This document shows positions 21,262-25,900 of a stretch of 64,000 nucleotides of DNA, piece after piece. The position numbers and the translations under genes were made by a program. The DNA lies in the NCBI RefSeq assembly GCF_003334315.1, contig NZ_QOWR01000007.1; one strand, 5' to 3'. Within the stretch, counting starts at the first letter, position 1. Every line of letters begins with the position of its first letter. The DNA comes from Escherichia coli. GTDB lineage: Bacteria; Pseudomonadota; Gammaproteobacteria; Enterobacterales; Enterobacteriaceae. The notes below the pieces were generated by a model that worked only from the letters and a program-made list of their open reading frames with translations, made no database searches and was not told where the DNA came from.

Positions 21262-22764
21262 ATGCCTCACACGATAAAAAAGATGAGTCTGATAGGACTC
21301 ATATTGATGATCTTTACTTCCGTATTTGGATTTGCCAATAGCCCATCGGCTTATTACTTAATGGGTTATAGTGCGATTCCCTTTTATATATTTTCTGCAT
21401 TGTTATTCTTTATTCCATTCGCCTTAATGATGGCTGAAATGGGAGCTGCTTATCGCAAAGAAGAAGGCGGTATCTATTCCTGGATGAATAATAGTGTCGG
21501 ACCACGTTTTGCCTTCATTGGTACGTTTATGTGGTTTTCCTCTTATATCATCTGGATGGTGAGTACCTCCGCGAAAGTTTGGGTACCGTTCTCAACATTC
21601 CTCTATGGTAGCGACATGACCCAGCACTGGCGTATTGCCGGACTGGAGCCTACGCAGGTGGTTGGTCTGCTGGCTGTGGCATGGATGATTCTGGTCACCG
21701 TCGTTGCTTCTAAGGGGATTAATAAAATTGCCCGCATTACTGCGGTGGGCGGTATTGCAGTAATGTGTCTGAATTTAGTATTGCTGTTAGTAAGCATTAC
21801 TATTTTGTTATTAAATGGTGGGCATTTCGCGCAGGATATTAATTTCCTTGCATCACCGAACCCGGGTTATCAGTCCGGTCTGGCAATGCTATCGTTTGTG
21901 GTATTTGCCATTTTTGCCTATGGCGGAATTGAAGCGGTTGGTGGTCTGGTCGATAAAACGGAAAATCCAGAAAAGAACTTTGCCAAAGGTATTGTTTTTG
22001 CCGCTATTGTTATTTCAATCGGTTATTCGCTGGCAATATTTTTATGGGGCGTCAGCACAAACTGGCAGCAGGTATTAAGTAATGGTTCCGTTAACCTCGG
22101 CAATATTACCTATGTGCTGATGAAGAGCCTCGGGGTGACGCTGGGTAACGCACTGCATTTGTCACCTGAAGCGTCATTGTCGCTGGGCGTATGGTTTGCG
22201 CGTATTACCGGACTTTCGATGTTCCTCGCCTATACCGGTGCGTTCTTTACGCTTTGCTATTCACCGCTGAAAGCCATCATCCAGGGGACGCCGAAAGCGT
22301 TGTGGCCGGAACCGATGACGCGCCTGAATGCGATGGGGATGCCGTCTATCGCCATGTGGATGCAGTGCGGGTTGGTTACTGTCTTCATCCTGCTGGTTTC
22401 GTTTGGTGGCGGTACCGCATCGGCGTTCTTTAACAAGCTGACGCTGATGGCGAACGTGTCTATGACGCTTCCTTACCTGTTCCTCGCGCTGGCTTTCCCA
22501 TTCTTTAAAGCACGTCAGGATCTCGACAGACCATTTGTGATTTTCAAAACGCGTATGTCGGCAATGATTGCGACGGTGGTTGTCGTACTGGTGGTGACAT
22601 TTGCGAACGTCTTCACCATTATTCAGCCTGTGGTTGAAGCCGGAGACTGGGACAGCACATTGTGGATGATTGGCGGCCCTGTCTTCTTCTCGCTGTTAGC
22701 GATGGCGATTTACCAGAACTATTGCAGTCGCATGGCGAATAAACCTGAGTTAGCTCTCGACTGA
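21262..22764 (+). CDS. yjeM: APC-superfamily inner-membrane transporter YjeM (500 aa)
   Basis: ORF 21220-22764 trimmed to ATG 21262 (MPHTIKKMSLIGLILMIFTSVFGF...); polytopic. Confidence 0.88.
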   Translation: MPHTIKKMSLIGLILMIFTSVFGFANSPSAYYLMGYSAIPFYIFSALLFFIPFALMMAEMGAAYRKEEGGIYSWMNNSVGPRFAFIGTFMWFSSYIIWMVSTSAKVWVPFSTFLYGSDMTQHWRIAGLEPTQVVGLLAVAWMILVTVVASKGINKIARITAVGGIAVMCLNLVLLLVSITILLLNGGHFAQDINFLASPNPGYQSGLAMLSFVVFAIFAYGGIEAVGGLVDKTENPEKNFAKGIVFAAIVISIGYSLAIFLWGVSTNWQQVLSNGSVNLGNITYVLMKSLGVTLGNALHLSPEASLSLGVWFARITGLSMFLAYTGAFFTLCYSPLKAIIQGTPKALWPEPMTRLNAMGMPSIAMWMQCGLVTVFILLVSFGGGTASAFFNKLTLMANVSMTLPYLFLALAFPFFKARQDLDRPFVIFKTRMSAMIATVVVVLVVTFANVFTIIQPVVEAGDWDSTLWMIGGPVFFSLLAMAIYQNYCSRMANKPELALD

Positions 22765-22779
22765 TCATATGAAATCCTG

Positions 22780-22808
22780 CAACTCATCGTCTCTCCGGCG
22801 ATGAGTTG
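22780..22808. terminator. Strong hairpin between convergent yjeM and mscM
   Basis: Perfect 10-bp stem CAACTCATCG / CGATGAGTTG with 9-nt loop, 16 nt after the yjeM stop; no clear U-tract on either side. Confidence 0.45.
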
Positions 22809-22913
22809 TCAGGAAGTAATGCGTATGGATGATACTCTCAGGGCCGGTGATAACTGAAGATGATGTTAAGCTGCTAAATGAGCCACGTTGACATCATTTG
22901 GCAGCTTCATGCA

Positions 22914-25900
22914 TTACAAACTTCCCGCCTGACGACCTTTGCCCGCAGACGTCAGCGTTCTCCCCGTTTGTTTACCGTTGAGGCTTTCCAGACGCATCTG
23001 GAAGGGCGGGAATGGCATATCGATACCGTGGGCATGGAAGCCAGCCAGAATCAGCTGGTGGATCTCATGGCGTAGCGGCATACGGTGACCCATCTCAGCG
23101 GCATAAATACGCAGCTCGAAAATCTGAATCCCTTGTTGCAGATCCACCAGGAAGACTTCCGGTGCCGGGTTGTCGATCACCAGCGAGCAGCGACGCGCTG
23201 CGGTGAGCAGGATTTCCGTCACTTCTTCACTGTTGGCATCAGCAGGGGCCGGAATCGTCAACACTACGCGCGTGACCGAGTCAGAGAGCGACCAGTTGAT
23301 AAACTGCTCGGTAATAAACGCCTTGTTCGGCACGATTATCTCTTTACGGTCCCAGTCGCTGATGGTGGTGGCGCGGGTGTTAATTTTTGTCACGCTACCA
23401 GTAAGATCGCGGATCGTTACCGTATCGCCAATGCGAATCGGTTTTTCGAACAGGATGATCAGGCCAGAGATAAAGTTGGCGAAAATTTCCTGCAAACCAA
23501 AACCGAGACCAACACCGAGCGCGGCAACCAGCCACTGCAATTTCGACCACTCAATACCAATCATTGAGAAGCCGACCAGCCCGCCAATCAGCATCAGCAG
23601 ATATTTTGTGATGGTGGTGATGGCGTAACCCGTACCCGGCGTTAAATCCAGGTGCTGCAAAATCGCCAGTTCCAGCAGCGCGGGCAGGTTGCGCACCAGC
23701 TGCGTGGTGATGATAAATACCAGAATGGCAATCAGCACCGCACCGAGGGTAATTGGCTCCAGACTTTCTACGCCCTGTACCGTGGAGGTGACATCCCACA
23801 GCGAAATATTTTCGAGGAAGCCGAAAGCGGAATGGATTTCTGACCACAGCACAATGACCGAAAGCAGGGCGATCAACATCAAAATTGAGCGCACCAGCCG
23901 CAAGGATTGCGCACTGATGGCATCGAGATCGACTTCGCTTTCATCGACTTCAATTGCTCCTTCCGGGCTACTGTGATGATGCGCTTCCTCTTCGCCACGC
24001 GCACGTTGCGCTAACATCTCTGCCCGGCGATGCTTCGCCCGGTCAAACGCCAGCCTGCGGCGCTGGATCAGCATCCAGCGGCGGATAACGTGATAAACCA
24101 CCAGTAGCAGGAACCAGATGGCAACCGAGGTTTCAAGCCTCGCTAACAGCGCCTGTGCCGTTGCCAGATAACCCACAGCCGACGCCAGAATGGCAACCAA
24201 CGGCGCGCCAATCATCATGTTCCACAGCATATGGTTGGTAATGTTGTCGCCGCTGCCCTCTTTGTTGAGATACAGTGGGATCCCGGCCTTTTTCAGGCTG
24301 AGGGTGACCACCGCCAGCGCACCGCAAATGAGGATAAAGCAAAGCCGTCCCAGCGAACCGGAGAATTCACGGTCGTCGAGGTTATCGAACATCATCAGCG
24401 CCATAATCAGCGGCACAATAAGCCCGATGCTCATCAGGTAGTAGCGCATCCCACGGGAAACACGTTCGCGCGGCCAGCCAAAATGAGCGATAAACAAGCC
24501 GTTCGGGCGGGCAAAGGTGGCGCAAATCATCACTACCCACAGCAGCGGCACGGTGGCCGTTACGCCATCGCCAATCGCGACCGCCAGCGGATAAGGCCAC
24601 GCCTCGCGCAAGCCGTAACCCAGCGTCATCCACAGCACCGGCAGCGGTGACGCGACGAGAATCGACCAGAAAAGAGTGCGCAACGTCAGCCAGAAGTGAT
24701 CCTGAGTCACTTTGCCGACTTTCGCCGCCGAACGTTCAAGAAAACGGGTGAAATAGCGGCGCGAGTAAATACTGCAACCGACCAGAATCAACGCGCCAAA
24801 CAGCGGCAAAATTGTCTCTTTGCTGGTCAGCATCATCACACTGGCTTTGCCCAACTGACTGAAGGTGTCCAGCGAAATGAGACGACGCAGATCCTGGGCG
24901 ATTTCCAGCGGCCAGGCGATGGTCATCGGGCGCACGTCAGAGGTCCAGAACAGATAGCGGTGCGTTGCTTCGTTCACCTCTTTCAGCGCATCCTCCAGTT
25001 GCCCGTTGGAGACTTTCAGCTTGGTCAGTTCCAATAGTAGCGTGTCGCCACCCTGCAACAATGAGTTCAGCAACTCACGCTGAGTGCGTAGTTGTGCTTC
25101 CAGAATACGGTTTTGCTCGGCGGTCAGCGGCTGACCGTCGGCCTGATGAATTTGCCGTAGCAGCAGCTGTTTATTAAGCAGATCCTCATAACGTAACCGT
25201 TGCACACGCAACTGCGCCATTTCGGTATCAAGCTGTTGTGGTTTCGGCATTTCCGGCAGCCGTGCCACCTGCGCCCGCAACGCTTCGCCGAGCAGGTTGG
25301 ACGATCCCAGCCATTGCGACTGTTCACGCAGCGTATTCAGCGCCTGCCGAACCTGTAACGTCTGGCTGGTGGCCTGGCGCTGTTGCGAGGCAACGAGATC
25401 CATCCGCTGCGCCTGTTGATTCAGTGCCGCCGATAGTTCGCGGTTAATTTTGAATTGCGCGACGATGTCTTTCGGCAAATCGGCGCTGTTTTCTGCCAGC
25501 AATTCGGTACTTTCCAGCGCCCGCTCCGCCTCAAGCTGACGTTGGCTGTTCAACTGATTACGTAAGGCCTGCAAATACGCATCCAGTTGCTGGCTCTCTT
25601 TTTCCGCCAGCTCTGAGCGTAAGCGCGCTAATTCCTGACGGTTATTGGCAGACAGCTGCGCCAGTTCCAGTTCATCAACGAGCGCTTTCAGGCGTGCGGA
25701 GTCAGACTGCAACGCGAAATTTTGTGCCTGATTGAGCGGAGTATTGCCGGTAAGCGTTCCCAGGCGGCGCTCGATCTCATTTAACTGACGGCGGGCGTCG
25801 GTTTGCTGTTGCGGCAGTTGATTCAGCGAATCGGCAATCTCGCGGGCGCGCTCCTGCTCTTGCTGGGCCTGACGGCTTTTATCCAGCAACTGGCTGCTGA

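Follow-up and report, generated by a model that had tools for sequence, protein, structure and literature searches.

The 149-bp spacer that separates yjeM from mscM in this Escherichia coli DNA is very probably the scar of one old deletion of ~580 bp in an ancestral Escherichia yjeN-yjeO cassette, an allele that later spread through the species. This reading is based on the anatomy of the gap, its homologies, the counts of alleles among complete genomes, the single junction that the short alleles share, and the states of the same slot in outgroups. An earlier note on this DNA had reported a gap of 150 bp from which the K-12 genes yjeN and yjeO were absent. Both genes are indeed missing, and the gap measures 149 bp; the corresponding gap of K-12 MG1655 is 705 bp long and, unlike that of the window (the whole 64,000-nucleotide stretch that was analysed), contains yjeN and yjeO intact. 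The note had also stated that a K-12 junction identical to this one would overturn its claim, and the 705-bp gap is what we found there instead.

The genes yjeM (+) and mscM (-) are convergent, and the gap between them spans 22765-22913. The features of the region are as follows, with the evidence for each in brackets.

21262-22764, + strand: yjeM, a glutamate/GABA-family transporter (ORF list and the RefSeq annotation of CP53 mapped on the window)
22762-22764, + strand: yjeM stop codon
22775-22814, + strand: hairpin 1, the yjeM-proximal stem-loop (inverted-repeat search, folding)
22811-22863, + strand: yjeN remnant, comprising a Shine-Dalgarno (SD) sequence, ATG and ~13 codons (alignment to the 5' end of APEC O1 and E. 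albertii yjeN, translation)
22861-22879, no strand: deletion junction zone (left- and right-anchored alignments to E. albertii)
22868-22907, no strand: hairpin 2, once the stem-loop between yjeO and mscM, which today follows mscM directly (inverted repeats, folding, E. albertii homology)
22914-22916, - strand: mscM stop codon
22914-26237, - strand: mscM, miniconductance mechanosensitive channel, formerly yjeP (1107-aa ORF, comparison with annotated genomes)

Neither the ORFs of the window nor the RefSeq annotation of CP53 place a gene in 22765-22913. The CP53 junction is 100% identical to the window over 22265-23413, while outside the junction the two are not identical throughout. The gene order of the neighbourhood in the CP53 annotation, epmA-yjeM followed by mscM-psd-rsgA-orn, is the normal one. 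The second hairpin (22868-22907) and the 5' remnant of yjeN (22825-22863) had not been recorded in the earlier note.

The K-12 locus b4156-b4159 (yjeM-yjeN-yjeO-mscM) and the window have their chromosomal neighbourhood in common, with flanking genes that are ~98% identical and a stem-loop after yjeM in both. K-12 differs, in addition to its intact genes, in the last ~12 codons of yjeM, in hairpin 1 (four compensatory pairs) and in the spacer hairpin (GCCGGATTGGTTCATCCGGC). Because its haplotype diverges already within the last 12 yjeM codons, K-12 is an unsuitable comparator for the deletion. Direct repeats flanking the K-12 insert, which the earlier note had suggested looking for, were not found.

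The end of yjeM exists in two deep haplotypes, which differ over the last ~12 codons (22725-22764 of the window compared with L001:758-797 of K-type). The W-type end, reading MANKPELALD or SRMANKPELALD before the stop codon, occurs in the window, APEC O1 and E. albertii; the K-type end, which is QSGKKSAVGGGI-like or reads PQWAVE before the stop codon, occurs in K-12, in strains that have yjeO only and in strain GF3-3. W- and K-type ends differ at about half of their nucleotides, with the remaining gene ~98% identical, and the K-type end resembles the yjeM ends of Citrobacter and Salmonella.

The left 99 bp of the gap (22765-22863) are homologous to APEC O1 and E. albertii from the yjeM stop codon to the first ~13 codons of yjeN, and take in hairpin 1, an SD-like AGGAAG (22811-22816) and an ATG at 22825. 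The segment 22825-22857 translates as MDDTLRAGDN, with a stop codon at 22855-22857 that is reached because a 2-nt deletion after codon 6 of the yjeN stub shifts the frame. The shifted frame reads PVITEDD. Across the frameshift, MDDTLR / PVITED matches the YjeN N-terminus MDD[AT]SRDP[AV]ITEDE, which is conserved in Escherichia and Salmonella. The 10-codon ORF at 22825-22857 is a pseudogene fragment, a point that is of use for annotation. Over its last ~50 bp the remnant is ~70% identical to known yjeN alleles, and its flanks are less diverged; this divergence fits decay after the deletion, although the parent could instead have been an unsampled divergent allele.

A weak sigma-70-like site was also seen on the + strand at 22806-22833 (TTGTCA-16-GATGAT, 9/12 matches), where it overlaps both the yjeN stub and the 3' arm of hairpin 1. 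Possibly this was the promoter of yjeN-yjeO before the deletion, but one such site is no more than the chance expectation.

The right 50 bp of the gap (22864-22913) are homologous to the E. albertii spacer between the yjeO and mscM stop codons. The homology spans the spacer hairpin and its tail (GGCAGCTTCAYGCA followed by TTACAAAC), with TGATTGAAGCTGCCAGATTCACATCCGGCAGCTTCACGCA joined to TTACAAAC in E. albertii as compared with TGATGTTAAGCTGCTAAATGAGCCACGTTGACATCATTTGGCAGCTTCATGCA joined to TTACAAAC in the window; the E. albertii spacer sequence aligned to hairpin 2 is GAAGCTGCCAGATTCACATCCGGCAGCTTCACGCA. Local alignment of the same 50 bp to the K-12, APEC O1, yjeO-only and GF3-3 alleles gave no match. 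The only homologue came from the E. albertii comparison, and the spacer hairpin of the window is of the E. albertii version.

Measured against the 728-bp gap of E. albertii, the gap of the window is shorter by 579 bp net (728-149). Anchored on the left, the alignment to E. albertii extends to 22879; anchored on the right, it begins at 22861. The two overlap at 22861-22879 because the junction (TGATGTTAAGCTGCTAAAT) can be matched to either of two segments, yjeN codons ~12-20 or the yjeO stop codon with the start of the spacer, which form an imperfect direct repeat (TGA...GCTGC...AT). The endpoints of the deletion lie somewhere in this 19-nt zone, in which the sole repeat is a 3+5-nt imperfect microhomology. 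An intact parent haplotype, combining the W-type left flank, yjeN-yjeO and hairpin 2 with a longer loop (AAGCTGCTAAATGA...TCATTTGGCAGCTT), was not found, and the breakpoints are therefore bracketed rather than placed. A MAFFT alignment had equated TGAGCC in the window (22879-22884) with the yjeO stop codon and the start of the K-type hairpin; we judged this a chance 6-mer, since the E. albertii alignment accounts for both arms and the tail.

We propose that the deletion began near yjeN codon 13 and took everything up to and including the yjeO stop codon. Its ends would lie in the short imperfect direct repeat (TGA...GCTGC), a pattern that replication slippage or illegitimate recombination would leave. 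Three pieces would then have been left behind: the post-yjeM stem-loop, the dead 5' end of yjeN and the former yjeO-mscM stem-loop. The 2-nt frameshift in the stub would have arisen later than the deletion, and the scar itself would have no activity of its own. Microhomology-mediated deletions in bacterial genomes likewise have a short imperfect repeat at their endpoints and keep a 5' gene stub, which here has since been frameshifted, and a second such deletion, with GGAA microhomology, has occurred at the same locus. A mechanism of this kind is what we infer from the scar itself.

The core of hairpin 1 is a perfect 10-nt inverted repeat (22780-22789 / 22799-22808) around a 9-nt loop, exactly the perfect 10-bp-stem hairpin that had been noted earlier at 22780-22808. 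Folding extends it to 12+5 pairs (22775-22814) with a dG of -31.2 kcal/mol (z = -6.6 relative to shuffles). The arms of hairpin 2 (22868-22881 / 22894-22907) are 14 nt long and 13/14 complementary, and fold on the mscM strand at -20.6 kcal/mol (z = -3.6 relative to shuffles). In seven alleles the 12-bp core of hairpin 1 was paired in 100% of cells, compared with 20-58% in slid controls. The K-type haplotype forms hairpin 1 at this position from another sequence, and comparison of the two haplotype families shows four pairs in which both partners have changed. The full pairing and the four compensatory pairs support selection on the structure of hairpin 1, as judged from only two independent lineages.

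Each hairpin occurs once in the 64-kb window, and the gap sequence has a median of one place per genome. As both are single-copy, they are not REP elements, and assignment to any dispersed extragenic palindrome was rejected on the same count of one copy each instead of many. No Rfam covariance model matched 22400-23300 at E <= 1, and a promoter/terminator scan of 22600-23100 gave no terminator-like site on either strand. The hairpins are like Rho-independent terminators in being stable, GC-containing stem-loops directly after stop codons, but the U run that follows the stem in such terminators is missing in both: hairpin 1 is followed by TCAGGAAG / CAGGATTTCATA and hairpin 2 by CATGCATT / AACATCATC. 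A predicted K-12 transcript, based on RNA-seq and metatranscriptome data, covers yjeM, yjeN and yjeO (PMC4168707) and passes hairpin 1 into yjeN-yjeO, which is unlike the behaviour of a terminator. Given the lack of U-tracts and the transcript across yjeM-yjeN-yjeO, a terminator role for the hairpins is unproven, and that of hairpin 1 is probably weak. Most likely the two stem-loops stabilise the 3' ends of the convergent yjeM and mscM transcripts or bring about partial termination, and still shield the mRNA 3' ends and reduce read-through.

We surveyed 5426 complete E. coli genomes for the short junction, which was present in 2395 of them (44%) with at least 80% coverage of 22765-22913 and 95-100% identity. 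It is the commonest single allele at the locus, and an allele carried by 44% of genomes is an ordinary strain polymorphism. The right half of the gap together with the first 27 nt of mscM (22864-22940) was covered to 80% or more in these 2395 genomes and no others, was at least 99% identical in 2356 of these, and occurred in none of the genomes bearing yjeN/yjeO; the form of hairpin 2 seen here is likewise limited to the 2395. DNA of yjeN/yjeO was found in 3030 genomes, 2153 having both genes and ~877 yjeO only, so the two sets are complementary (2395 + 3030 = 5425 of 5426). A further ~274 genomes match the left 99 bp alone, at ~84.5%, and have yjeN annotated there (APEC-type).

Carriers of the short allele include O157:H7, E. 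coli B (BL21) and NC101, which we take to be of different phylogroups. Their junctions are the same 149 bp at 98-100% identity with no gene annotated, and the window, showing no substantive difference from this class, is an ordinary member of it. One partial match was observed: in NZ_CP033605.1 (O157:H7 TR01) the gap was matched at positions 21-107 only (58% coverage, 98.9% identity), which points to an additional rearrangement there or to a fault in the assembly.

That one junction with a nearly invariant sequence is found throughout indicates that the short allele had a single origin. Among just four sequences, every possible pairing of a left flank (W or K) with a right flank (GCAGACGTCAGCG or GCAGAAGTTAATG) was seen, a pattern that indicates recombination across the junction, and such recombination explains how the allele came to be so widespread. 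The short allele would have spread through E. coli by descent together with homologous recombination.

Other alleles at the locus record other events. The yjeO-only allele (~877/5426) goes back to a 253-bp deletion that arose independently on the K-type haplotype; it shows GGAA microhomology, and a 12-bp deletion goes with it. The 253-bp deletion takes the yjeN SD and most of yjeN and leaves yjeO intact (FXCREC043, L003:800-1241, compared with L001). Strain GF3-3 (L005:1-3000) has yjeN, a frameshifted yjeO and an IS630-family pseudogene, and then a second cassette abutting mscM that consists of a 237-aa hypothetical protein and a YjeO-family paralogue 53% identical to K-12 YjeO. SCPM-O-B-8794 (L006, the GTDB species representative) combines a W-type left flank with a K-type spacer hairpin, and its YjeN and YjeO are 92% and 86% identical to those of K-12, respectively; this mixture indicates that the yjeN-yjeO cassette is itself mosaic.

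The number of these events raises the alternative that the locus is a recurrent hotspot, at which the hairpins promote repeated independent deletions and the short alleles arose separately. The 253-bp yjeN deletion, the IS630 insertion, the cassette swap and a Salmonella slot without yjeO would all be in keeping with this, as would the occurrence of short alleles in backgrounds as different as O157:H7, BL21 and NC101. However, independent deletions would leave differing breakpoints, and the short alleles agree in junction and in their unique right half in 2395/2395 cases; the four-combination flank pattern already accounts for their distribution via recombination. We consider recurrence very unlikely. 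The earlier description of the junction as an indel hotspot holds for the locus, with its 253-bp deletion, IS630 insertion and variety of cassettes, but not for the allele of the window.

The earlier note had left it open whether this strain never acquired the two genes or lost them by excision, and the states of the slot in other species bear on both possibilities. E. albertii has yjeN and yjeO between yjeM and mscM. In Salmonella enterica (L087:3993-4515) the slot holds a yjeN homologue, 125 aa as called and 69% identical, and no yjeO; no yjeO remnant was found in the 136-bp Salmonella spacer, which contains REP-like palindromes. In a comparison of 80 Enterobacterales species, three states were seen for the slot that follows mscM. 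It was empty, with a single hairpin between yjeM and mscM, in several Citrobacter, Klebsiella spallanzanii, Lelliottia and Pseudescherichia vulneris; it held a gene for a 237-aa protein and a DUF2645 paralogue in C. werkmanii, C. youngae, Pseudocitrobacter, Enterobacter asburiae and Kosakonia; and it held yjeN with yjeO in Escherichia only.

The empty slots in the family are what would favour a short junction that is ancestral, with K-12 and others having gained yjeN-yjeO by insertion. Yet the spacers of these empty slots in other genera have no sequence in common with the window gap, which contains the yjeN SD and ATG, 13 codons that can still be recognised despite a frameshift, and the hairpin found downstream of yjeO in E. 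albertii; the YjeN N-terminus is conserved as far away as Salmonella. As the missing segment has left both of its ends behind, the start of yjeN on the 5' side and the yjeO-mscM spacer hairpin on the 3' side, and outgroups have genes in the slot, we reject the view that this lineage never acquired them; an ancestral short junction is very unlikely.

Just as unlikely is a small mobile island that left an empty attachment site on site-specific excision: the slot does hold alternative cassettes by genus and, in one E. coli strain, an IS630 pseudogene with a second cassette, and in Advenella a lysozyme-like and DUF2645 pair lies near integrase fragments, but no integrase, tRNA or IS is present at the locus in the window or K-12 (nor any integrase or IS within +/-20 kb in CP53), there are zero direct repeat families in 22700-22980, and the cut falls inside yjeN and keeps the downstream spacer, so that no unit with defined ends can be drawn. 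With neither an element nor long repeats, and with a cut inside a gene, excision of an element is not supported, and "excised" is correct only in the loose sense of deleted. A single old deletion within the cassette is the reading that we carry forward.

As to what was lost, YjeO is a DUF2645 protein in which three hydrophobic segments can be read from the sequence. Its gene was reported to be induced 2.6-fold in a sigma-E study (PMC2731931), and a pan-genome study reported a link between yjeO and growth in milk (PMC11390585). YjeN belongs to no family and occurs in Escherichia and Salmonella only. Sequence searches of NCBIfam, PADLOC, Pfam and PDB with YjeN and with the 237-aa protein gave no match. 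The YjeN model is mediocre (pLDDT 70.5) and has no significant fold match, and we make no claim of a weak winged-helix resemblance. The idea of YjeN as a decayed piece of the lysozyme-like protein described below did not survive an hhalign comparison (probability 0.3%).

The 237-aa protein is one of a family of 234-259 aa found in Citrobacter, Enterobacter, Cronobacter, Dickeya, Pectobacterium and Xenorhabdus. Its AF2 model has a pLDDT of 86.8, and the top ranks of a Foldseek search of the PDB were nearly all lysozyme-like: MltE, goose-type (g-type) lysozyme and the T6SS muramidase Tse3. These matches had probabilities of up to 1.0, but E-values of only 0.05-0.3 and TM scores of 0.4-0.5. The family has an invariant Glu77, and in PHROGs the 237-aa protein matches only a family of unknown function.

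A DUF2645 gene lies immediately downstream of the lysozyme-like gene in all seven contexts examined, and hcp (PF05638) is adjacent in three of these: Dickeya, Pectobacterium and Xenorhabdus (L090:2512-4012, L092:3001-4572 and L093:3501-5086). Further loci with the pair are L091, L094-L096 and L010-L025; hcp is not next to the copies of the pair in the mscM slot. In Paramixta a CdiI-type immunity gene follows the pair. K-12 YjeO is 32% identical to the hcp-linked DUF2645 protein of Dickeya (E 9e-8).

The constant pairing with a lysozyme-like gene, often beside hcp, suggests that the two form a putative Hcp-linked type VI effector-immunity module. The arrangement, a lysozyme-like gene with a small gene directly after it, resembles Hcp-linked T6SS effector-immunity pairs such as the Tse3-Tsi3 muramidase pair. 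It differs in that the candidate immunity protein, DUF2645, is a predicted multi-pass membrane protein and not periplasmic; the pair has no sequence-level match to known effector or immunity families, and YjeO of E. coli is paired with YjeN, which is unrelated to the lysozyme-like protein.

Based on this coupling, one can speculate that the yjeM-mscM slot is an old docking place for small modules of interbacterial competition, that DUF2645 would be a membrane-anchored immunity protein against an unclassified Hcp-linked lysozyme-like effector, and that yjeO would be an orphan immunity gene. We hold this tentatively, as a possibility that is less likely than not. No paper mentioning DUF2645 was found in the literature searched, and the idea may exist under other names beyond it.

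The short allele is effectively already known, being a common and stable E. coli presence/absence polymorphism of two small genes without characterisation that is visible in the annotations of thousands of genomes and in pan-genome tables, and yjeO was handled as an accessory gene in the pan-genome study (PMC11390585). What is added here is its polarity, a single loss and not a failure to acquire, and its anatomy, a yjeN stub with two kept stem-loops. The allele also provides a clean marker for recombination in the yjeM-mscM region. The sole lead that we regard as worth following is the coupling of the YjeO family to a lysozyme-like partner, which offers a hypothesis, open to experiment, on what a K-12 y-gene without known function might do; if it is true, the scar would mark lost protection in 44% of E. 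coli.
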